Shown here: positions 7,075 through 64,000 of the stretch, one piece after another
Layout: every line of letters begins with the position of its first letter
Numbering within the stretch: the first letter of the stretch is position 1
Assembly (NCBI RefSeq): GCF_018977255.1
Contig: NW_024704743.1
Location: forward strand, 100,130,001 to 100,194,000
DNA: 64,000 bases
Direction: 5' to 3'
From: Callorhinchus milii
Taxonomy: Eukaryota
The notes under the pieces: model-generated
Database searches by the model: none
Told to the model about the DNA's origin: nothing
The model's input: the letters and a program-made list of their open reading frames with translations, nothing else
Made by a program: the position numbers and the translations under genes

Positions 7075-7271
7075 CCTGTATGCCCGTTCACTTATGGCTT
7101 TGATGTGGCCTTCGTGCCACTTGCTACAGATGCCATCAATGACTTCACAGTAATCCACAAAGTAGCCAGTGATTTCAGAACCTCCATGGAATTTGGGTTC
7201 CTTCCATCCCAGGACCATAGAGTTACGGACACTTTCAAGAACTGTGATCCCATAAGGTGGGTCTGGAGAAA
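7075..7271 (-). CDS. MYOM1: MYOM1 exon (My7 Fn3)
   Basis: SPDPPYGITVLESVRNSMVLGWKEPKFHGGSEITGYFVDYCEVIDGICSKWHEGHIKAISERAYR; phase 1-0. Confidence 0.96.
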
Positions 7272-8477
7272 CTGTTTGAAGAGTCAGTACATTCACACTC
7301 ATTAATAGTTCCACTTTATAACTCATATATTTGAATACAATTTTTACTATTAGGAACATTTTGTAAATCTTCCAATAGTCTGGTGGATAAAGGAAACACA
7401 AGAGAGGAGGAGGGAAGGATTGGGAAGGAGGGTTGGGGAAGGGGCAGGAAGGGGGAGATTTGGGGAGTAATTTTGGACTCCAGCAGCTTGGACCTTTTTA
7501 GAATAATAGACTTTTTGTGCATTGGACCAGGAATATTTTGACCATTTTAAAATCTGGTGATATGCTATAGAAACATAAAACATTTTATGGGGAGGGATTC
7601 TGCAGGTCTATATTTATACTATTTATGTATCATTGCAGAGAATCCATAATTTGGCAAAATCTTAAATGCAGCCTAAATTTTGAAGCCGGTTTTCTGACCC
7701 TTCTCTTAAGAATTACAGAAACCCGACCTCAAAGTTAAAAGCGATTTCAACAATTTTCAAAATTCTGGATGCTCTGAAACACTACATAAATAAAAAAATC
7801 AAGATCCAGATGGAATTTCCCCCACTAGCCATCTAACAGCTCCACATAACTATACGGAGCATTAATACATAGCCACCAGGAGACTATTTGAGAATTTGAC
7901 TATTTGAGAATCAAACAGGACCTAAAGTTGAGACTGGGAAATAAAAAAATGGCAGAGGCCACGATATATTGTGCGACATGAAATAGTCGTGAGCAGCGAC
8001 ATTGATAAGAGCCAAGCTGAAGCCGACAGTTCTTGGCAAATTATGGAGTATAACTAAGTGAGACGCCAAGGGACACTCTCACTTAACTCCTACTGGACAA
8101 TTACAGTGTCAACAGCAGAATCTGGGACCAAGTCACGTGCTCACTCCTAGGGAATACAATGTAGTGCAGAGAGATTTTTTTTGAAAAAAAGAAAACACCT
8201 TCAAAAAGTAAAAATGAATTAAAATGCATCAACTCAGAATACAATGCAAATAGATGTAGGTTAACACACGTGGTTGTGGAATGCAACCATCCATAGAGTG
8301 CTCATGAATTACAAAAGTGTGTTTCACACAAGTGAGAGCAAATTTAAATCAGTGCAGTGCTCTACTTCATCTGTGGGAGGCTCCCGTTTAGGGTATTAAC
8401 ACCTTAGTAAATTACCCCATTGCTGAGTAATAGAATTATTATTTGCACCACAGAGAAAAGCTTCCAAGTAAATATAC

Positions 8478-8750
8478 AATGGGCACCGGCCTGCTTTAAG
8501 TGTATCCCCTCCACCTGCTTTCAGCTCAACAGCCCCACCCTCTGGAATTTCTTGCCCGAGTTTGTTAGACTCACCTCCTTCAACGTCCATCTCAAGACCT
8601 TCCTCTCTGACTCTGCTTTTTGGCCATCTTTCCCCTTTGTCTCCCACCCCTTCAGCCACCACCCCCAGCTCGGGTACAAACCTTAGACTGTCCAGTGCCT
8701 TGGGATGTCAATCCGACGTGAAAGGCACTAAATACATATAAATTTGTATT
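8478..8750 (+). mobile_element. L2 LINE 3' fragment
   Basis: PTLWNFLP...HLKTFL; tail cttgggatgtcaatccgacgtgaaaggcac. Confidence 0.8.
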
Positions 8751-9775
8751 GCATTGTGTTCAGGAGATACTGGCCTAACTCAATCTGAATGGCAGTTTCA
8801 GTGCTTGCAAGCTGTAAAAGAGATTTTACTGCTATTTTCAAACCCAGTCAAACTGTGCAAATGCTGTAAAAGCCCAAAGAAACCGAGTTTCCATTCATCC
8901 CCTCTAAGTCACATGGACTTGCAAGACCTGAGCTCCAACCAAACAGCACCTCAAAGATGAAGTTGATGTGGCATAGAAATGTGGTAAGTATACAAATGTG
9001 CTCAGGGCCCTGAAAATTCTTAATCTGGCTCTGATAAAGGACTTCAGATGGTTACAGTATTCAAGCTCTCTTTCAAGCAATCCGGTGCGTCAAGTCAAAC
9101 ATGTCAACTTGTCAAAGTCATTGAAGATCCCTTAGATAAAATGCCAAATGAACTCAGTTGGAATAAAGAGAATGAAGTGGTGCAAGAAATTATAATTGAT
9201 CCCATTCAACATTAAGCACAAACCATTGAGAACAGTTAATGAGATCACCTCTCTTCCAAATAGCAAATGCTCTCAATGGTGGAACTGAGAGGAGAATAGA
9301 ATTCTGGTGACCCTTCTATGAAGAAGCATTTTGTTGGTTAAAACTGGCGAATTTTACATTGCAATTGAATGTTGATATGGCAAAACTCATTGCAAATGAA
9401 ATGGATCTTACCAGATGGGTGCCAGAATATTCTATACACCATCTCTTGCACATTATTTTATCTTTTTTATGGAACGCTGAAAGCAACATCCATAAAGAAC
9501 AAAGATATGGATTCCCCCAGTAATTAGTGCTGTTGTTGTGGGTATGTCAAAAAACAGTATCAAGCACAATAAATATAGATAAACTTTTCATCTTTGTTCT
9601 TGGTCCTCCTGATATTTTCTCAATGGATGGGACTGAGTGTGCTATCAGATATTGCACAAGACCTAATCTCATCATAGAATTGAGCAATGGCAACTGTAAT
9701 GTTTCCCTGATTTCTCACCTAAATCGTTCTCCTTGTGCATATCTTCTACCTTTGGACTTCTGAAGGTAGACTTAC

Positions 9776-10150
9776 GTGCCATTTCTGCATTTACCTTCTC
9801 TGGTGTATCTGGTACTGTGCAAGGTAAATTATCACGGCTAGTGGGCACCGAGCGTCTGTTAGGCACAACATCACAACTTAGTACAGTGTCGTGTGCGAGC
9901 TGAGATGTCTCATGCTTGTCATCCCAGCGTACACTGCTTTCTATTAATTCATCCGTGTGTATTCGACTTTCTATTAATACATCCACTTGTGCACTGCTTT
10001 CTGTTAGGCCATCCAAGTGCGCACTCTTTTCTGTTATTGCACCCCAAAGTGCACTTCTTTCTGTTATTCCATCCCAGTGTGCCCTCCTCTCTGTTAGTGC
10101 ATCAGTTTTACCACTTTGTTCAGGACACACACCATGAGGTACTCCTCTTC
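9776..10150 (-). CDS. MYOM1: MYOM1 EH-segment-like alternative exon (375 nt; a second in-frame donor at 9719 gives 432 nt)
   Basis: Lies between My6 and My7. Starts GRGVPHGVCPEQSGKTDALT (human EH starts GGGVSPDVCPALSDEPGGLT). tag|GA acceptor; donors C|gtaagt (9776) and G|gtgaga (9719), both phase 1. Confidence 0.82.
9924..10103 (-). repeat. Coding 30-bp minisatellite (6 units plus 1 degenerate) inside the EH exon
   Basis: DALTERRAHW/DGITERSALW/GAITEKSAHL/DGLTESSAQV/DVLIESRIHT/DELIESSVRW. Confidence 0.9.
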
Positions 10151-11533
10151 CTAGAGTTAAATAAAGTAATTCATCAGGGCACACGTTCACGTAACACATA
10201 ACAAGAAATACTTCATTTTTTCTCAAGAATGAAGAAAATGAAGACAACCAGTGATGCCAACACAGAACAAGAAAAGGGATGCAAGAAAATATATCTTACT
10301 GAGATTTAACACCATTGACAGGCAAGGCTCCAGACAAGGAACAGAACACACAGTTTCTATAATAGACAAGCACTTTGCTCCAGACTTTGTCGTTTGGCAA
10401 ACAACTCATTTTAGTTTTTNCTGTGTATCACTTGTCCAGAAAATAAAATAACATTGCTTGATGTAAGCAATTTCCCTCTTCACATGCATTAGGAAGACAA
10501 TTGCTTACTAATATGACTACAAGGATATTTCCAAATTTATTTCAGAATTTGAAAAATGCCTTCAATGATCATTTTGACCAGTAAATTCATTGCATGACAC
10601 ACATTATAACATATTTGATCAAATAAGGAAGGAAACAAAATTGCTTTAGTAAATTACTTCAGTTTATTCAATAACTATGACTGATTCCACTAATGAAATA
10701 TAATCTGATCACAAGTATTCTGTTGTGTTCAATGCAGAATTGCAACTTATTTAAAACTGTCTTGGGGCGCTTTAAATAAATTCTTTGTTAAGTCTATTTC
10801 ATTGGCATTCATTATCACTTCAATTAAATTCTTTGAAGTTTGCATGAAATTGCTACGATAATGAATGAGAGATGCTTTTGATATTTTTTGATGATTCCTG
10901 TGTGTTTGGTGCGTCATACAATGAGTTTTGGTTTGCTTATATAAGATGAGAGAATTTTTAACACATTCATCCACAAAATACAGTCAACTACTTTACAGTA
11001 TATCCTGTGAAGTACTTATCATAATGACATGATAAGGTGCTATATTAAATGCAAGGATTATTTAATATATTTATTAGCATTCACAGGAATAATAAGGGTT
11101 AGATGCACTCTTACATTTTTAAGACAAGCAGCTAGCCACAAAATGTTAGCAAATGCAGGTCAGCAAAGGAGTTAAATTACGTGTGTATGGACAGGATATG
11201 CACAGGGTGGTGTTGTAAGGGATACATTACGTTATGCTGAAGGAAAGCTGGTAGTCCATTGCTCGAGTACACTTTGAAGCATATGACTGTGAAGGAGTCT
11301 CATGTGAGATTTCATACAGTGGCTAATGGATAGGATGAGTGGTAAACAATAAACTTTCCATGTGATACAGGTACAATGGGGTGCAATACAGGTACAATAC
11401 AGTGAAGAACCACAACAACATGATGGCGCTGTGAAAACAGTTTGTCATTATTTGAAAAGTAAAATCAATGATAAACATCTTTACTATCAAAAATCTGAGC
11501 TCAGATAATATCAGCTTATTGTTCTGTACTTAC

Positions 11534-11655
11534 CTAGAGCTGCCTTGACCTCCAATGGTTCAGAATCCTGCGAGAAGTCACTGAGTCCAGCTGCATTAAC
11601 AGCCCTGACTTTGAATACATATACCTGACCAGTTTGCAGCCCATGACAAATAAAC
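11534..11655 (-). CDS. MYOM1: MYOM1 exon (My6 Fn3)
   Basis: FICHGLQTGQVYVFKVRAVNAAGLSDFSQDSEPLEVKAAL; phase 2-1. Confidence 0.97.
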
Positions 11656-12192
11656 CTACAAAACAGAAAAAGTTTATTTTCAGATTACCATGTTTGCAAT
11701 GATTTGCATTAGTTATTTGTTAAATCAAAATTTTATTGAGTTTGGTGGACATAACATATTATATACAACCAATTTTAGTTATATATAGTTATACCAAGAC
11801 AGAGCTTTTTATTTCGCCACAAACTGGAATGAAGATTGCGCTGTGTGATATGACATTGATCACAACGACGATAAATGTGATCAATGAGCCCAGTCAATGG
11901 CTAAAACTGGCCAAGGATGTGACACACACCCCCACCCCCCACTCTCCCACTACCATGCACCAACAACAACTGACTCCAACACAATGAATTGGCCTGAAGT
12001 CTTTAAAAAATGTCCATTGGACTTGCCAGCAGATCAGTTTCCATTCTTCTGACTCTCACAAAATACACAAAGCTCAAAGAAGATTTGCTAGCACTGGTTA
12101 TCAGATTCAGAAGTATTGTGTTTGCTCAAAACAACATTGTATCATTGCTTCTTTTGCAACGATGCAAGTAATGTGCATTGAAGCTGTCAGAA

Positions 12193-12582
12193 AATAATAA
12201 TAACAATCCTTGCATTTGATATGAACCTTTATCACATCTTCGAGACGTCTCAAAGCTCTTCACAGAATGTACTGTAAAGTGAATTGACTATATTTTGTGG
12301 GCGAAACGTGTCAGCCAATTGCACACAGCAGTGTCCCACAAACAGTCGTGGATTGAGTGACCAATTTACTTATTTATTTATTATTACTTTATTTTTTTGA
12401 AGGAATCATTACCCCCGGAAAAGTGATTAGGCAATCGACTAACAATCGGGTTCCTACTTACTACTAGATAAACAGAGGCATGTGGAGTAAGGAAACTTGC
12501 CCAAGGTTTTGCCCTGCTTGGAATCAAACCCAGGTCTCTTACTTGTGCAGCAACTGCTCTAACCACTGAGCTGCAGAACTCC
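12193..12582 (-). mobile_element. tRNA-derived SINE, long variant
   Basis: Same family, with the internal segment shared with the 29.4-kb copy. Confidence 0.9.
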
Positions 12583-23399: not shown

Positions 23400-24120
23400 C
23401 AACAACAACAACAACAACAAAATTATGTTTGTGTAGTTCCTTTCCTGTTGGGAGGACGTGTTACGACATTAGACAGACAGAGTTACAGATTGAGCTGGGG
23501 GTTGGGGTGGGGGAGGGGGCGGGGGGGGGAAGCAGGGAGATCGAAAGCACGGTCAAAGAGGAGGATCTTGAGGTGGGTCTTGAGAGGCGAGGGAGGGGGT
23601 GAGACGGAGGGACTGCAGGATGGAGTTCCAGAGGTTGGGGGCAGAGTGGAGGAAAGCCTACCCGCCAATAGTGGGGCGAGCGAGGTGGGGCATGTGAAGC
23701 AGGCAGGAGCCTGCTGAGCTGAGGGAGTGAGCAGGATAATAGGGGTTAGGAGGTTGCAGATGTAGGGGGGAGCAAGACCGTGGAGGGTTTTGAAGGTGAG
23801 GACCAGGATCTTGAACTGTATCCTCTGTGTGATGGGAAGCCAGTGGAGTTGGGCAAGGATGGGGGTGATAGGGTCTCGGAGCATGGTGTGAGAGAGGACA
23901 CGGGCTGCAGAGTTCTGGATGATCTGCAGCCTGTGGAGGGAGGAATTGGGGAGGCTGACAAGCAATAAGTTTGCATAGTCGAGTCTTGATGTAATGAAAG
24001 CATGTATGAGGGTTTCGGCAGCCTGCAGTGTGAGACAGTGGCAGAGCCGGGCGAAGTTGGGGAGGTGGGGGAAGGCAGAGCGGGTCATCGCGCAGATGTG
24101 TGGTACAAAGGATAGTTGAG
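23400..24120 (-). mobile_element. 5'-truncated L2 LINE
   Basis: ETLIHAFITSRLDYAN...[13 protein letters not shown]; (CAA)n on the plus strand. Confidence 0.94.
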
Positions 24121-24242
24121 GGAACATGCTATACAGGATTTAGATAGCTCCCTTTGCCCTTATTGTCTTGGATTACTGTCTATAGTACAAAAACCATGTT
24201 TGTTGGAAAGTAACGCTTTGTCCAATTACAGCCATTGCTTAC

Positions 24243-37609: not shown

Positions 37610-39010
37610 GAGTCATTTGTCATTGTCTTAGATATCTCCTAGACCTTTGACAGTGTCTGGCACTGTGAATTCTAAACAACAACTTGCATTTATCTAGTGC
37701 CCTTCACGTGGGGTAGGCTTTGGAGCGCTTAACAGTGCAGACAATGAGCCTGGAATAGAGGGGAGGTGACTGTAAGTAATGTTGAAGAGGAACGTCTTCA
37801 GGTGTGAACTGAAAATGGGGAAGGAGGGGGCAAAACAGAAGGATTGAGGGAGAGAGTTCCAGAGTTTCAGGGTGTAGGGGCTGAAAGCACAGCCACTGAT
37901 GGTGGAGCAGAGAGAACAAGGAACAAGTATGAAGCTGGAGCCAGCCGAGCAGCGATGGTGAGTAAGCAGTTCAGAGAGATAGGGAGGTGCCAGGGCATGA
38001 AGGGATTTGTAGTCGAGTGTGAGGATCTTGAAGTCAATCTGTTCTGTGAAAGGAAGCCAGTGTAGCCTGGCAAGGACTAGTGTGATGGGAGCAGAGTTTA
38101 GGGCAGGTGAGTATACAGGCAGCGGAATTCTGAATGAGTTGGATTTTGAGGATAATGGAGCAAGGAGAGCATTGGTATAATCAAGGCGGGAGTTGACAAA
38201 GGTTTTGACTACATTGAGTGTGAGGTACAGTTGGAGGTGGGCAATGTGATACAGGTGGAGGACAGTGCCCCAAGTCAGGGCCTGGATGTGGGGTAGGAAG
38301 GACAAGTTACCTTTTTCTGCTCTTCTACTTAAGTTGTCTATTTTCCTCTCAATTTGATCTATGCCACAGTTAATAGTCTGTTATCTGACTCTTTTATCAA
38401 TTGGGGGGTTGAGAGAGCTTGATTCTCTCTTCCAATGTGTTCTTCTCCACATTAATACCCGCCTCTCATCATCTAACACCATCCACTGTTTTGCTGATGA
38501 TTCTAGTCTATAACAGAACTTTCACCCTCTCACAGATGAAAGCATTGGCTGATTTTCCTTCACAGCCTTCAATAATCCTCTTTCTATTGAGTCCTAAACT
38601 ACATAATAATTTCCCTATTTATCTCACAAATTTATCCATCACCTCTTAACTTAGATAGTTCTATTCTTAATGTTATCGATCAACATTCTTGATCTTGCTG
38701 TAACTTGTGAACCCTATTGGATCTCCCATTTGCATTTCCAAAGTTGTCTCCATGAAACTCAATCTCCTCATTATGCACATCACTATTTCCTCACTCAATA
38801 ATTCCTAACTTTCAAAAATGTCCAAGTCCAACTGAGTTTTGAATACTGCTTCAATATTTGGGATAGTCCATCAAGCATCTGTGTTGTCCTCCCGAATAGA
38901 ATACTAGCAGAGATTTGTCACCCAACTGTGATTCGTTTCTCAAACCTAACCTCCATCCTCTCTGCTCGTTTTCTGTTATTATTATGGATACTACTTTGGT
39001 AGTACCTTCG
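37610..39010 (+). mobile_element. Old non-LTR RT remnant (clade uncertain) interrupted by the L2 at 37676-38305
   Basis: LDIS*TFDSVW motif before the L2 and HCFADD motif (~38485) after it. Confidence 0.6.
37676..38305 (-). mobile_element. 5'-truncated L2 LINE
   Basis: SRLDYTNALL...LHWLPFTEQIDFK...LWNSLP...LKTFLF. Confidence 0.92.
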
Positions 39011-40342: not shown

Positions 40343-41468
40343 TTTGTTGACTTATCTCATTTTCTAACTTACTCGTCTTAACCCTGTCAATTTATTGCAC
40401 TACGGACTTTGTTCGATCACTTGTTTCTCAATAAGAAGACAAATGTCAGTCTGCTCTTCCTCAGTTGACATATTGTAAACAAATCATTAATAACTAGTCT
40501 TGCGAGTGATTTGGATGGAGCTCTATATGCTGGAAGAGATTTATTTCAGTAATTTATCCCAGTTATCAGAATTGGATAAGGGAGCCTGATTTATACTTCT
40601 TTCTGCACATCACCTTGAATCATAGCTGAATAGACACAAGTACCTGATTTCAAAGATTTGTCCTTAGGGAGTTTGGTATTTCAATGCTATTGAAGAGCTC
40701 AATTGGGTCTTTAAAAGCGCTCCGGGATGTTACTCCACATGAAGGATGCAATATAAATGCAAGTTGTTGTAAAATAAATATTTTGTGAGTTCTCAGATTG
40801 TAGTGTCCAAAACACCTTCAAAGTGTAGCTCTACATCTAAAGACAATTGTGGATTGAATGCATGTACGTGACAATTATCCACAGATTATGTAGCTAATTA
40901 TCTAAAATTCATAGCATTTATAGCACTATTTGGTCCATCAAACCTATGCTTGTGCTAAACTTCTTAACACAAGAAGGGAAACAGATAGCAGAGAAGGATG
41001 AGCAGGGTAAAAGGGAAGAACAAAAGTCACGTCGAAGAGAAGAGCAAAACTTTGTGGACAGTATGCTAGTGCTAACTGCTCCACTAAAACTATATAGTTT
41101 GATCCTGATTTACTGTTTTTACCCTATAGAGGATGCTGTGTGAAAACATATCTTCAGTGCAATCACTTGTCAAGACACTAGCTCACTGAAACATAGAATA
41201 AGAGAAGTGGTCAGAAACTGCTCTGGTCAAAAAGGTTACCAACTGTGTTAAGATTCGTAAACCTGAATAGCATAAAGATTTGCAATGGTAAAAGGGAAAG
41301 AACAGCGAATTAGAGTAGTTAGCTCCCATAGATGAACAGTACAAGCTTAGATTTGATAGGCCAAATGGCCTCTTCCTGTACACCTCCTGTAATATCTTTG
41401 ATTCAAATCATAATACACTCTTTATTTTCTCCTCAAATACATATCTCCTTGTAAACAATTGGACATAC

Positions 41469-41603
41469 CGTCCTCTGAAGGTGGGCACAACATAGCCGGT
41501 TACTTCATTCTCTTTCCCCTCATAGTTCTGCTTTGCCCGCTTCAAAAGGGGGCTTCCCGGGAAGCTTTCTACCATTTCATCTGAATATTTGGAAGATCTC
41601 ACT
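41469..41603 (-). CDS. MYOM1: MYOM1 exon (My1)
   Basis: cag|A...CG|gtatgt; VRSSKYSDEMVESFPGSPLLKRAKQNYEGKENEVTGYVVPTFRG, cf. human KRAKH...YMVPIFSGR; phase 2-2. Confidence 0.92.
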
Positions 41604-42074
41604 CTGTAATAACAACAAAATTACAGTAGGATTCATTACTGCGATTATTTTATGTTGTATGCATGAGACCAATCGTACATAGTGACGCAAGGCAACAAAA
41701 ACACTGATCCTAAAACGTAATGAAAAGATTGCTATTTTTAGCAATTGGCTATGATAGACCACTTAGCTTTTTTACACTTTTCCAGCTGAGGGCATTTCCA
41801 AGAATAAAACTACAGCTGTTCAGTCCAGCAGCCATTTATAGAATCTATCGGTCTGTATTTTACTGCCTCTTAAAGCAATACTCCAGGGTAGGACTCTACA
41901 CTAACTAATCATTGAGCACTCCGGTAACCTGCACCTTCCACAAGAGGTTGCTGGATATTCATGAGGAACAGAAACACTGACTAAAAAAAAACTATTTACA
42001 TTTTCAAGTGAGGAGGATGTCTTCATACAACTGACTGGGAGCATAAATAGAGTGAATAGGCCAGCTGGATGAGT

Positions 42075-55367: not shown

Positions 55368-55602
55368 TAACATGCAAGAGCATTTGGATAGTGCCTATCA
55401 CACAAGGCATCTCAAAGCCCTGTACAGTGGTAGGGTTGGATGCCGAGCAAGAGAAAGGGTGACACGACCATGGGCAAGGTCAAAGAGGTAGGTCTTAAAT
55501 TCCAGAGATTAGAGACGTGGTGGCTGTAGTCACTAAATTCCAGCCAGCTTTACGTATGAGATGATTTTGCCTTAGTGCTTTGGGTCCATTTTAAATTCAT
55601 TC

Positions 55603-57230
55603 AACAATAACAACAACTTGGATTTATATAGTGCCCTCCACGCCGGACGCATCTCAGAGCGCTTCACAGTGACGGATCCCGGGACCGAGCCAGGGGGAGG
55701 GGGAGGAAGGTGACCAAAGGCGCAGTCGAAAAGAAAGGTCTTCAGCAGAGACCTAAAAATAGGAAGGGAGGTAGCGAGGCGAAGGGAGTGATGAAGGCAG
55801 TTCCAGAGCCTCGGAGAATAGTGACTGAAGGCATGGCTGCTGAGGGTGGAGCGGAGGACACGGGAGAAGCTGTTTGTGCAGATGTACTGCTGGTGGTTTG
55901 TGAGGTAGGACTCGAACCAGGCGAGTGCGGTCCCACTGAGGTGGATGACGGAGGAAAGGCGGTGGAGGAGGATGGAGCGATCGACTGTGTCGAACACAGC
56001 GGAGAGGTCGAGTAGGACAAGGAGGCAGAGAGAGCCCTGGTCACAGATAGAGAGGATGTCGTTTGTGACTTTCACAAGTGCAGTCTCTGTATTGTGGGCA
56101 GGGCGGAAACCGGACTGGAGGGGTTCGAAGAGGGAGTGGGAGGAGAGGTTTGCGCGGAGTTGATTGGCAACAACACGTTCTAGAACTTTTGCGAGGAAGG
56201 GCAGGTTAGAAATAGGACACTTATGCCTGGGGTTTGAGAGATCTAGGGACAGTTTTTTCAGGAGAGGGATGATGACAGCAGTTTTGAGGGAGGCAGGGAC
56301 TGATCCAGAGGAGAGGGACTGGTTGAAAATGTTAGCTAGTAGTGGGCAGAGGAGGGGGAGCTGGGTGACCAATAAGTTGATGGGGAGGGTGTTGAGGCAG
56401 CAGGTGGTGGGTTTCATGGAGGTGATGGTGGGTGAGAGGGAGGAGGGAGAGATGGGGAGGAAGGAATGTAGAATGGGGTTGGTGGTAGGAGCAGATGATG
56501 GGGAGGGTGAACGGGACAGAGAGGGTGTGGTGGTGGGTGACAAGAGACAGGTGATGAGGTTGCTGGTGGATGTTAAGTATTTTAGATGAAAAGAAGTCCA
56601 TGAACTCCTCGCACTTGGCGTTTGATACGAAGATTGAGGAGGCCTGAGGGAGACACGGAGGAGGTAGTGGGTGGTGGAAAAAAGGATTTTAGGGTTGTGT
56701 TTAGCCTCCAAGATGATGTTGGATGATGTTCCGTGTGTCAAAGAACGGCGGTAGCTGTGGAGATGCTCGAGCCACAGTTGGCGGTGAACTGTCAGGCCAG
56801 TTTTCCGCCATTTGCGCACAAGCAGCCGGGTTTGGGTTTTTTGGCGATGAAGATGGTTGTTGTACCAGGGAGTTTGGGTGGGTTTGGAGATGGTCCTGGA
56901 TTTCAGGGGGACGAGGGAGTTGAAGGTGGAGGAGAGGTGATCATGGAGCAGCTGGACGGCTGCTTCAGGATCTCCGCGGGTGGAAGGCCAGAGGGATAGG
57001 ATGTTTGATGATGAGAGGGCCTTCGTGAGGTCTCAGGGGGTAGCCTTTTCCAAGGGCGGTAGAGGATGGTTGAGGGCTTGGTGGAGGAGAGAAGGATGTG
57101 AGAGGAGAAGGAGATGAAAAAGTGCTCCGAGATGGCCTTGTCCACTATGCTGAGATCGGAAATGTCAAGGCCGTGGGTGATAACAAGATCAAGGGCATGG
57201 CCACGGTTGTGGGTGGGTGAGTTTATATGA
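55603..57230 (-). mobile_element. L2-clade LINE fragment (ORF2 endonuclease end, RT, 3' end; internally deleted)
   Basis: PTHNRGHALDLV; PISNLPFLAKVLERVV; QSGFRPAHNTETAL; LLDLSAVFDTVD; (TTG)n tail. Confidence 0.93.
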
Positions 57231-58560: not shown

Positions 58561-60506
58561 ACTCAATACTCCACCTTGCAGTAAATACTGTGAAGTGCTT
58601 TGAAATGTTTCATAGACGTGATAAAGCTCTGTATTAAATTCAAGGATTAATTATTTTATTCTAATTTACGAATAATAGAATTAATTTGCAAAAATTTCCC
58701 AATTTCTAAGTGCCTATGGACCAATGCCATTATACCCATGCTCCTGTGTGACAGCACCGCTTGGTGTATTCTATGACTAATCCTCATCTGTAAACTCACT
58801 GACTGCAGCTTTGCCCCTTCAGAAATAATTTCTGTGTTGATGCGTCTTCTCTGCCTGGCAGTGTGCGGCAAATTCCTCCTTAATGACCATAATAACAAAC
58901 CTAATTATCATTTGTTTCATTTTAACAAGCATTTTGATCCCGATGAGGAGAAACAAAATATGGTCATATGTGCAGTCACTCAATATTCCCCGTGTTTACC
59001 CCAATGTGAATCTATCACTGTATTTACTTTGCTCTGTTTGTCACTTCTACTTTTGCAGTTGTGGACAGAGCAACAACAACAACAACAATGGAAAACTTGG
59101 GAGAAATATACAGCCATGGTTGAATGAAGGCTTGCTTGACATTATCAATTCTGAGAAGAAAACACTCAAGCATGATCTAACCAGCATTTCAACCCCATGG
59201 CCATTTTATAACCAGGGGCCTCCTCTGCTGTATCAGTTGCTTTTAACCCTCCCCCACCCCATCTGCTGCAGACATTTTTTTGTATATGGGCTTTTTATTG
59301 TGTTTGTGGTCAGTTTGTGCTGGCAGCAGTTGTCAGTGCGGATGTTGTCAGTTGATGTGCTTGTCCTTGACAAGTCTATTTCAATTCTAGCAGTCAATCT
59401 TCCACAGAAAGCACACACTTCATTCTGCTTCATCTCCTACTGCCATCTCCATCGGAAATATCTTCATTCTCTAGCAGCTTTGAAAAGTAAAAAGCAAACA
59501 CTATGCCATTCATGGGGATGAACTTTGTAATAATAATGTAATAATAAAATAATTATCCTTTTATTTAATACAGTGTTTTTCACATCAGGAGGGCTTCTCA
59601 AACTGCTTCACAGGATATACTGTAAAGTATAGGGGCTGTGTATTTTGTAGACAATCACAGCAGCCAACTTACACACAGAAAATAATATCATTGAACAGCA
59701 ATAATGTGTTTTGTGTATAATGCACTATCATTGAATAATTCTAATGTTTAATATGTAATGTATTGTCATTGAATAATTCTAATGAATATTCCTTATCGTT
59801 AATGTTCTACCCATTATTGATTCAGTAATTATCAGTGATCTGTTTACTTTACTACAGTGTCTGTCACTGACTGCTAAAATTCATGCCTTCCCCCACCTCC
59901 GCAACATCGCCTGGCTCCACCACTGTCTCACTGGTGAGTGTTGTTTTTCATTTTCTTTCCTCCTCTGAAGATGCTTTTTCTTTCCTCCTCTCTGCTGGAC
60001 TATTGACTTATGGCATACAGAAAGAAATATCCAATCAAGAAAATGTATTTTGGTGGCCAACAATAAAAGTTGGCCAACACTGACCCATTAGTGGAATCTA
60101 TTCATTCACACATTCATACCAATTTACCCAGAGGTTGTCCATAACATTTAGGCCAAGATGTTGAATAATGCTATATGTCCTACTGCTGAGCCGATGGCAA
60201 TTGATAGACAAGTGGTGAGGCATCACAGGGCTTGGAGGTGAAAATGCCAAACTGTTTACTGCGAGACGTGATCTACATTGTAATTTGTGATTGAAGTGGC
60301 ACTCCATGTCAGTCTGCAGCACCACACATTGTATATGCTCTACGTGCTTTCTATTTATAAACAGATACAGAGGTGCAGTTCAGACAAGAGTCTGACAAGC
60401 TTTGGAAAGCAAAGGTCTTTGTTTGGTGCTCTCTCTCTATCAACACTGCTGACACAAGAATGTCTGGCTTCATTAACTGTGATAAGGAAGCTATTTCATG
60501 GGAGAA

Positions 60507-61810
60507 TCAACAACAACAAAATGACATTTGTATAGCACTTTTCACATCGGGAGGACGTCCCAAGGGGCTGGACAGACAGAGTTTGGGACCCGAGCTGGGG
60601 TCTTGAGACCATCCTAGTCAATCCATAGTCATAGTCATAGTCATAGTCAAGCCTCGATGTAATGTATAAGGGTTTCGACGGCCTGTGGTGTGAGACAGTG
60701 GTGGAGCCGGGCGATGTTGCGGAGGTGGGGGAAGACATGGTGATGATGTTGGGTAGAAAGGACAGTTGAAGGTCAAACAAGACCTCAACGTTCCGGACTG
60801 GCTTAGCAAGGTAGAGTGTGCAACCACGGATGGTGGTGCTGTCAGCACCTGAGGTGAGGAGGCGCTGATGGGAGCCAATCAGGAGAGCCTCGGTCTTGTT
60901 GATGTTCAACTGAAGAAAATTAGCTCTCATCCAGGACTTGATGTCTGACAGACATTTTGTCAGGACAGCAGTGGTCCTGGAGACAAGGGTGAGGCAGAGA
61001 GGTACAGGTGGGTGTCATCTGCATACACGTGGCAGTTGATCCCATATCTGCGGATGATGTCACCAAGAGGGAGCATATAGATATTGAAGAGGAGGGAACC
61101 AAGGACAGAGCCCCAAGGAACGCTGCACAAGACGGTGCGGGGGNCTAGAGGAGAAGCTGTTCATGGAGATGAAGTGGAGGCGGTGTGAGAGGTACAATCT
61201 GAACCAGTCAAGGACAGAGCCGTGAAGGTTGAGATGAGAGGAGAGGCGGTGGATGAGGATAGAGTGGTCGACGGTGTTGAAGGCAGCAGAGAGGTCAAGG
61301 AGGACGGGGAGGCAGAGGGAGCCCTGGTCGCAGATGGACAGAATGTCATTTGTCATTTTGACCAGGGCTGTTTCTGTGCTGTGGACGGCACAGAAACCCG
61401 ATTGGAGGGGTTCGAGAAGGGAGTGGCGGGAGAGGAAGGACCGAAGCTGAGAAGCAACAACTCATTCCAGGACAAGGAGAGGAAAGGGAGGTTGGAGATG
61501 GGGCAGTAGTTTTGGAGTAGAGAAGGGTCTAGGGAGGATTTTTTAAGGATAAGAATGATGACAGTGGTTTTTAATGGGGTGGGAACAGTACCAGAGGACA
61601 GGGAGATGTTTAGTTTAGTCAGTTTCACCTGCGTTATGGTGGAGATGAGAGAGGAGGGGGAGACAGTTTCGAAAGTGTGGAGGGAGGGATGGGTAGGGGC
61701 CAGGGTGGGAGGGGGAGATGGGGAGGGGGTGGCAGATGGAAGGGGAGAGGCAGCTGATTCCCTTGATTTTGGATTCGAGGAAATCCAGCATCGCCTCGTA
61801 GTTGGCATTT
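60507..61810 (-). mobile_element. L2-clade LINE fragment (RT, degenerate)
   Basis: PISNLPFL, LLDLSAAFNTVDH, YADD-type motif, NFLQLNINKTE; L2 tail. Confidence 0.92.
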
Positions 61811-64000
61811 GAGGTGAGGATGAACGAGGCGTGATCAACATTTTAAAAACCATTTTTGTTTTGATTTATGGAAAGAAGTGCTAAATAAAGGACAATGTGA
61901 GTGAAATTTACAATATTTTATAAAAGATTTGATGTGATAATTTTCCCAACTGTATAAATGTATATAAAACATAAAAATTTAAAAATGGAAACCTTTTGAG
62001 GTAAATGATGGTAAGCCATGCAAAAATCGAATATCTCTAAAATCAAATTAATCTACAGACTTAACCCACTGTGGACGGACTGTTGGGAGAGTTCTCATTG
62101 GTGTGATTTTCCATAGGCCACAGTGTGAGGATGCTAATAATGATAATAATAATAATAATGCGTGCATTTGACATAGTGCCTTATCACGTCTTCAAGACGT
62201 CTCTGTGACATCCTCCTCAACATGGTCTGTAAGTGACTCTGCGGTGGTCTAGGTTGTATTTATAGTCTGTGCATCGGTGCTAGCAGTCATTTGCCTCAAA
62301 AGGTTTCCATTTCTATACTTGTATTGATATATTTTTTTCACCAGCTCCTGTAACAAAGCTCGGGCATATTCAGAAACCGATGAAAGCCACTAACTGCACC
62401 AGCAACAGACATTTAAAGATACAACGACACAACAGATTTCAACTACTAATTTACTTGGGAGTTTTAGATCTCCGGAAAGACAGCAGAAGACAAAAGAAAA
62501 GGAATGTTGACTTTAGCCTCTGATAGTCTTACACAGAAGAATTGACCTTTGACATTCTCCTGTCAGAATGCTGTTCTTTGGATGAAAGGTCCTTATCAAA
62601 GGCAAGAATTTTTATTGTATTAAACCTAAATTCAGAAATGAGTAGAGCTGACTGCTAAACACAGAAGTGAAGGAGTTGGGCAAGTTTTACATTTAGTCAG
62701 GCTGACAAGGTTGTCAGCTTGGCTCAGCTTGTAGTACTCTGAGCTGAAAAGTTGTGTGTTTAAGGAACGCATATGGCCATTGCACTGTGTTGTAAGAGGT
62801 GAGCACCTTATTGTCAGAATGCTGTTCTTTATTATGAGAATTAAAAGCAAGGTCCCATCTTCAGTCAAGGAAGAAGAATAACAACAATTTGCATTTATAT
62901 TGCGAGACTCTCACGGAGTAGAGCCTCAGAGTGCTTAAAGAACATTCATCAAAAAGACAAGGGAGTTTCCCCCGCTGTCCCAGCCAACCATCTCCAGATT
63001 AATTAATCATTCACCTCATCGGACTTTGCTGGTTGCAAAATGACTGCCACATTACCCTATATAAAACCAATGACTAATATGTGATATTAATTACAATTAA
63101 GTGGTATGAGACTAAAGGTATTATAAAAACAAAAGTTAATTCACAAAGGCTGTACCTCAACTGGACCTATGTGTTCTTTTACTTATTATAATAGGTACTT
63201 AATGCTAAACCCTCAAATTTTAAAATTAAGTAAATAGTGGGCTTATCATTTATCACAGTGCAATGGCCATGGAAAGACACCATAGTTGTACACAACAGCA
63301 ACGACAATTGACAGTTCTGTAGTGCATTTTATGTCAGGAGGACATCTCAAAGCACCCAATTACAGTGGAATATGGAGGTCATGGGGGAAGATGACTGAGA
63401 GAGCAGTCAAAAAGATGGATCTTAAGATTGATAGATCTGACTCAGAGTACTACAAGCTTGACTAAAAAGATAGATCTACCACAGTCAGTAGACTAAGGAT
63501 TCAAATGCTATAGTTTTTTTAATTCTGAGGTATCTTTGCAAACCTTTTTCAGATGTTGAATTTAAGTATAATACGTCAGCAGATTTGGGAAAGGAGGGAA
63601 AACCACTGGGGTTGGCGGGGGGGGGGGGGAGGGGGGTGGAATAACACAACATAACAGGATGTAATAGTGGTCCAGTAAAATTAAAGAGAGAAAAAACAGC
63701 TAATGGTGACATTAACAAAGTGGAAGACCAGACTACAAACCAGAGGAAGGAACATCAATATCACGTAGGAGGAGACTTTCACTGCTCCTGTCACAACAAA
63801 ACAATTGGCCTAGAATTTAACTAGTGAAGTGATCGTGCGTGCAGCATATATATGTTGATGGATTAGGTGTGACGTGAACTATTTAACTCCGAATTTTATA
63901 GTTCATGTAAACAAATAAAACGGTGTTGGGAGAGGGAAGGTTATCAATATATGATGCCTTTTAATAATCCTTACATTTGAAATATCTCTTCTTAGAAATG

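Follow-up and report, generated by a model that had tools for sequence, protein, structure and literature searches.

The locus analysed here raises the question of whether a short run of tandem 10-residue repeats, read from the minus strand of a 64,000-nucleotide window of the Callorhinchus milii genome (the whole stretch of DNA under study, on contig NW_024704743.1), is a genuine part of a muscle protein, how it came about and whether, if it has a function, this lies in the residues it contributes or simply in the length of chain that it adds. Most of the myomesin-1 gene lies on the minus strand of the window, and its isoforms can be mapped exon by exon. The repeat-bearing frame matches a protein record named myomesin-1 from Callorhinchus milii at 100%; for the open frame containing the exon, Pfam returned no family. 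Embryonic heart and slow muscle contain myomesin with the EH segment, which reappears in dilated cardiomyopathy. The literature treats EH as an elastic and disordered insert (PMC8900313, PMC4142248, PMC7023976, PMC3032906; these and the articles below are cited from their accessible parts), with the 96-residue insert placed between domains My6 and My7 (PMC8900313, which also provides the domain numbering used here). The chimaera repeat follows the second exon of My6 and precedes the first of My7, and its assignment to the EH exon of myomesin-1, as proposed in an earlier note made from the letters alone, is confirmed by the protein match, the isoform exon map and the splice joints. The relevant features are as follows.

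11534..11655, minus strand: upstream exon, second half of fibronectin domain My6 (exon map, spliced contigs)
9719..10150, minus strand: complete EH exon of myomesin-1 (432 nt, 144 codons, phase 1-1) with AG acceptor and GTGAGA donor (splice joints found in X2 and X3 contigs, protein records P0002-P0005, splice contexts)
10133..10150, minus strand: mini EH exon form, 18 nt, 6 aa, spliced from a GT donor that lies inside the exon and ahead of the repeats (X4 joint 7271-10133, records P0007 and P0008)
9924..10103, minus strand: tandem array of six 30-bp units (60 aa), amplified from a motif that EH segments of other vertebrates contain once
10103-10074, 10073-10044, 10043-10014, 10013-9984, 9983-9954 and 9953-9924, minus strand: the six array units
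9894..9923, minus strand: ancestral single-copy EH sequence, listed in the earlier note as a seventh unit (11/30 nt to the unit consensus)
9770..9775, minus strand: in-frame consensus donor GTAAGT under Arg-Lys-Ser codons, which would give a 125-codon exon (sequence)
9723..9752, minus strand: single copy of the 10-aa unit that is amplified about six-fold in sharks and rays (alignment)
7075..7271, minus strand: downstream exon, first half of fibronectin domain My7 (exon map, spliced contigs)

The EH exon is spliced into transcripts; that it is never expressed was one of the results which the earlier note had named as refuting its reading. Assembled contigs of 4 out of 12 runs (X1-X4) were mapped, for which the RNA label is a guess and no tissue label is given, and which provide no expression levels. 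None of the runs in which the search listed the sequence is recorded as RNA, and the other runs (X5-X12, in five groups) are probably DNA or do not contain it; it is the GT-AG joints across introns, and not the run labels, that reveal spliced transcripts. In run X2, a single 3798-nt contig joins My6, the whole 432-nt EH exon and My7 without a gap, and both joints of the full exon are also present in run X3. The exon is skipped in run X1, and in run X4 use of the internal donor keeps only 18 nt of it. Thus, the exon is alternatively spliced in frame to contribute 144, 6 or 0 aa, and each of these forms has protein records as well. Among the joints shown by the four runs, none was seen at GTAAGT and none inside the array, and the joints give an exon of 432 nt instead of one of 375 nt ending at GTAAGT. 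Since 8 of 120 long EH segments, from birds and teleosts, end at a place resembling this donor, a fourth splice form may nevertheless exist. Among their records, 11 species of sharks and rays and one catfish have the 6-aa mini form, and by this distribution among records its internal donor is old; no description of this form was found in the accessible text of the myomesin literature cited here. Elsewhere in the gene, a 45-aa exon of the N-terminal domain (approx. 41400-41610, minus strand) is missing from the records of protein isoform X2.

Within the exon, all six units are in frame, with neither indels nor stop codons, as the earlier note had stated. The units are 70% identical overall, i.e. 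they differ by 30% (Jukes-Cantor distance 0.39), with pairwise identities of 17-23/30 nt and 2-6/10 aa and a mean amino-acid likeness of 4.3/10. The best lag match of the EH exon is 0.71, whereas 1000 shuffles of its codons averaged 0.38 and never exceeded 0.47, and Tandem Repeats Finder calls a period of 30 at the array. Two elements of the initial description have to be trimmed. The EH segment is not as such 'built from' the repeat, which accounts for 60 of its 144 residues, and there is no degenerate seventh unit: the 11/30 nt that 9894-9923 shares with the consensus fall within the background (mean 8.4, maximum 14), and the stretch can be aligned with single-copy sequence of sharks and rays, where it represents the next ten ancestral residues; hence it is not a repeat unit. 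Nor does the unit belong to a dispersed non-coding satellite, which the earlier note had named as another result that would refute its reading. A DNA search of the genome gave a single match at E<=0.01, and among 72 genome matches of a degenerate 17-nt core a 30-bp spacing is found only in the five at the array locus; arrays of the same unit were not encountered elsewhere in the genome.

Where the array came from can be read from other EH segments, which were taken from the best 120 of 1147 homologues plus cluster members, a set biased toward high scores. Alignment of the chimaera segment with all 16 shark and ray records (12 species) reveals an exact 50-residue insertion, with 60-65% identity outside the repeats over 94 shared positions. 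This identity and a motif in common with birds and teleosts mark the segments as homologous. It is this motif that the array unit corresponds to: it is present once in other jawed vertebrates, i.e. in 117 of 120 long segments (with L-T as the search key, and counting isoforms and two chimaera models with apparently mis-predicted inserts among the 120), and its position 10 is Trp in 102 of these 117. From these alignments, the array is a six-fold amplification of a single-copy ancestral motif, and the idea that tandem expansion has lengthened the EH segment holds, with 50 residues added. An ancestral array that was lost elsewhere is rejected on grounds of parsimony, because the motif is likewise single in bony fishes and tetrapods. 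The ten residues that follow it in the ancestral sequence start with Asp-Gly, as the unit does in several species, and carry Glu at position 5, a local similarity that may have seeded a 30-bp slip. In one of the searches for a second chimaera, eight of 11 matches are not myomesin EH, and the five inspected are unrelated short-repeat proteins whose resemblance was taken to be due to chance. An EH segment from a second chimaera species was not found in the collections searched, which given their content is weak evidence, so that age and stability of the array have to be judged from unit divergence alone.

The C. milii genome is reported to evolve at a lower neutral rate than that of any other vertebrate in the comparison, and chimaeras and elasmobranchs split approximately 420 Myr ago (PMC3964593). 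With units that are 30% diverged in such a slowly evolving genome the array is likely to be ancient. The divergence itself looks neutral, with 24 amino-acid changes among the units against 23.4 expected at omega 1 in simulations that reject an omega of 0.3 (p=0.004) but not of 0.5 (p=0.07). The 34 substitutions among units include no stop codon, whereas 79% of neutral simulations gained one. As the units resemble each other less (4.3/10 aa) than the flanks resemble those of sharks, the extra copies have evolved under relaxed constraint.

These data bear directly on the strong form of the original proposal, according to which an active minisatellite varies in copy number between alleles while recurrent Ser/Thr residues tune stiffness as phosphosites. 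The size of the unit is minisatellite-like, i.e. tens of bases arranged head to tail, and 12 of 60 array residues are indeed Ser or Thr. This 20%, however, is no enrichment, with 17% outside the array and 18-21% among several EH segments used for comparison; the array lacks a PKA or CK2 consensus and the shark repeat contains only 2% Ser/Thr, which argues against the phosphosite idea. Likewise, units that are only 70% identical do not suggest ongoing turnover, and all four runs show six units without any gap the size of a unit (one contig each in X1-X3, two pieces in X4), among at most four samples and in contigs that drop rare variants or alleles. We thus give very little credence to an active minisatellite, and allelic variation in unit number, which the earlier note had thought possible, is not supported by these four runs. 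EH length does differ between species. With units 70% identical, a neutral-like divergence and six copies in every run mapped, the array looks old and fixed, with length being switched by splicing rather than by copy number.

An unexpected result came from sharks and rays. All 12 species of these with a long form carry a 10-residue repeat of their own in the same exon, with about six copies and a total EH length similar to the 144 aa of the chimaera. Their repeat is located at the opposite, C-terminal end of the exon, its unit is unrelated, rich in Lys, Glu and Asp and strongly disordered (FoldIndex -0.44), and it is present once in the chimaera (at 9723-9752). Kinship of the two units was considered and rejected, as the best rotation matches 14/30 nt and shuffles 14.2. 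Read from the alignment, the unit number is six in most species, approximately 5.5 in skates, approximately 7 in the catshark and 8 in the whale shark. EH lengths across vertebrates, in groups assigned from record names and with several sharks listed only as skipped or 6-aa forms, are as follows.

chimaera: 144 aa
sharks and rays: 138-164 aa (12 species)
bichir, sturgeon, gar and coelacanth: 97-111 aa
amphibians: 89 aa (n=2)
cetaceans: 95-96 aa (n=4)
reptiles: 105-109 aa (n=13)
birds: 75-110 aa (n=26)
teleosts: 81-260 aa, median 151 (47 proteins)

Thus, most tetrapods and non-teleost bony fishes have EH segments of 89-111 aa, compared with 138-164 aa in sharks and rays. Since bichir, sturgeon, gar and coelacanth are in the shorter class, a rule that fish need a long EH is not general. 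A relationship of EH length to the type of myosin lattice was also considered and dropped, with the chimaera having a superlattice and teleosts a simple lattice (PMC6888758). Periodicity with z of at least 7.9 was observed in 7 of 99 segments, i.e. in five elasmobranchs, a moray eel (8 aa) and a catfish (12 aa). The repeats of the latter two (records P0072 and P0128, the catfish EH reaching 260 aa) are independent ones.

Taken together, our preferred explanation, which we hold to be somewhat better than evenly balanced, is that in-frame amplification of the 10-residue motif to six copies adds 50 residues and thereby likely lengthens and softens the flexible My6-My7 linker of the M-band. In the chimaera lineage, once sharks and rays had split off, slippage would have generated the array, which would then have been frozen as its units diverged, with the open frame and chain length being kept rather than particular residues, and compliance would be set by splicing and not by unit number. 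In a worm-like chain model with an assumed 0.38 nm per residue, contour length would increase from approximately 36 to 55 nm and stiffness at small stretch would drop by approximately 35%. Chimaera, sharks and rays would then all have a longer and softer spring, and the similar length reached independently in sharks and rays suggests that length may matter. This explanation is weakened by the neutral-like divergence, which fits a functionless tolerated insert equally well, and by a convergence that involves only two lineages and was spotted in hindsight. The competing possibility, less probable in our view though one to be taken seriously, is near-neutral growth, i.e. that any in-frame expansion of the EH exon is tolerated, the similar lengths in chimaera and in sharks and rays being coincidental. 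The range of annotated EH lengths across the proteins examined (75-260 aa) and the separate repeats in moray eel and catfish are in line with such tolerance, and any included exon has to be free of stops and frameshifts. On the other hand, near-neutral growth does not readily account for shark and ray arrays that have stayed at approximately 5.5-8 units across 12 species, nor for two unrelated units that share a period and lengthen the exon by nearly the same amount; in addition, both of two variants in the array and three of the four in the exon are synonymous, which is a weak hint of constraint.

Beyond a softer linker in the chimaera, one may tentatively ask whether EH contour length is under selection in cartilaginous fishes, with chimaeras and elasmobranchs each having added approximately five unrelated units at opposite ends of the exon and converging on approximately 140-150 residues. 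We consider this doubtful. If true, there would be a three-position splice switch (0, 6 or approximately 144 aa) with a conserved 6-residue form, and a natural test of an M-band spring that is set by length and not by sequence.

The make-up of the array speaks in part against a softer linker. FoldIndex is -0.05 for the EH exon, which thus scores as disordered overall, similar to other EH segments, and borderline for the array (+0.01), which contains three Trp and no proline. AlphaFold2 predicted no tertiary fold, either for the EH exon alone or with a 39-row alignment in which other species are gapped over five units (pTM 0.22 and 0.31). As an alternative to a purely entropic chain, the proline-free array could form marginal helices that unfold reversibly at low force and thus act as a force buffer. 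Both AlphaFold2 runs place helix over the array (pLDDT approx. 60-83), and its mean helix propensity (0.44) is nearer to that of four presumed helical linkers (0.29-0.41) than to that of the rest of EH (0.75). Yet the missing prolines explain most of this gap, the hydrophobic moment of 0.23 at 100 degrees reveals no amphipathic face, the two runs disagree on the helix, their five models differ (mean pLDDT 44-63 and 52-58) and the shark array is a poor helix former (0.64). The helical linkers of myomesin My9-My13 do act as springs (PMC8900313, PMC4142248) and provide a precedent for helix-based elasticity in the same protein, but there it has been shown by crystallography and force data (PMC8900313), whereas the helix in the chimaera array is weakly predicted, and overall we regard a helical buffer as improbable.

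A comparison with titin, also made in the earlier note, is apt only in part. The PEVK region of titin is rich in Pro, Glu, Val and Lys and consists of approximately 28-residue, exon-encoded units that are added or dropped by splicing. Like it, the EH segment of the chimaera is a repeat-built, splice-controlled and presumably elastic sarcomeric region, but with no proline and only 18% P+E+V+K the array is not PEVK-like in composition, and its six units share one exon and are not spliced separately. EH as such has been likened to PEVK (PMC8900313, PMC4142248), and a separate, duplication-driven lengthening of the titin I-band has been reported in C. milii (PMC12241362).

The residues of the amplified unit could also matter in themselves, as a binding motif or exonic splicing enhancer, with the array raising avidity or exon inclusion. 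The motif is well conserved in EH, as judged from a search keyed on L-T and from its Trp, and it lies directly downstream of the conserved mini-form donor. Three of the six units have lost the Trp, however, as have cetaceans, strong amino-acid constraint among units is rejected and no EH binding partner is named in the accessible text of the cited literature, which makes such a function quite unlikely.

With respect to the EH of vertebrate myomesin-1 at large (exon 17a, 96 aa in mammals), the chimaera exon shares the My6-My7 position, the organization as one in-frame alternative exon, the N-terminal motif and the flanks (PMC8900313) and differs from the mammalian one by its 144 aa, its six-fold internal repeat and the additional 6-aa splice form. 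Cetacean EH also has the motif just once, and the dolphin segment shows no periodicity (z 1.7). Hence, the array is a real, expressed and lineage-specific variant of a known element and not a new mechanism, with a putative function. Whether the extra compliance of EH-myomesin is adaptive has been described as an open question (PMC7023976), and two independent expansions of equal size provide ready-made variants, differing in length and sequence, with which to ask whether chain length alone accounts for the action of EH. In addition, the supposedly featureless EH has, by alignment, an N-terminal motif and alternative donors that are conserved from chimaera to birds. The EH sequences themselves are already in public annotation; a prior account of an EH repeat in Callorhinchus or shark myomesin was not found among titles and beginnings of abstracts, a search outside subscription journals and supplements.

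Several other features of the gene and window may be mentioned. Chimaera, shark, turtle and gar records (P0005, P0007, P0091, P0166, P0174, P0049, P0053 and P0186) have a long alternative C-terminal tail of approximately 90-110 aa, the exon of which lies beyond window position 1 and which has a short acidic motif in common with the long tails of birds (P0036, P0043). These tails may represent the long 'H' variant, which has been reported only from birds in the accessible text of PMC8900313. Introns and upstream sequence contain decayed reading frames (55575-57032, 60499-61865, 23486-24139 and 37697-38380) that resemble LINE reverse transcriptases. Finally, a short interspersed repeat at approximately 10970-11065 and 12190-12300 is matched by very many contigs in all four runs.
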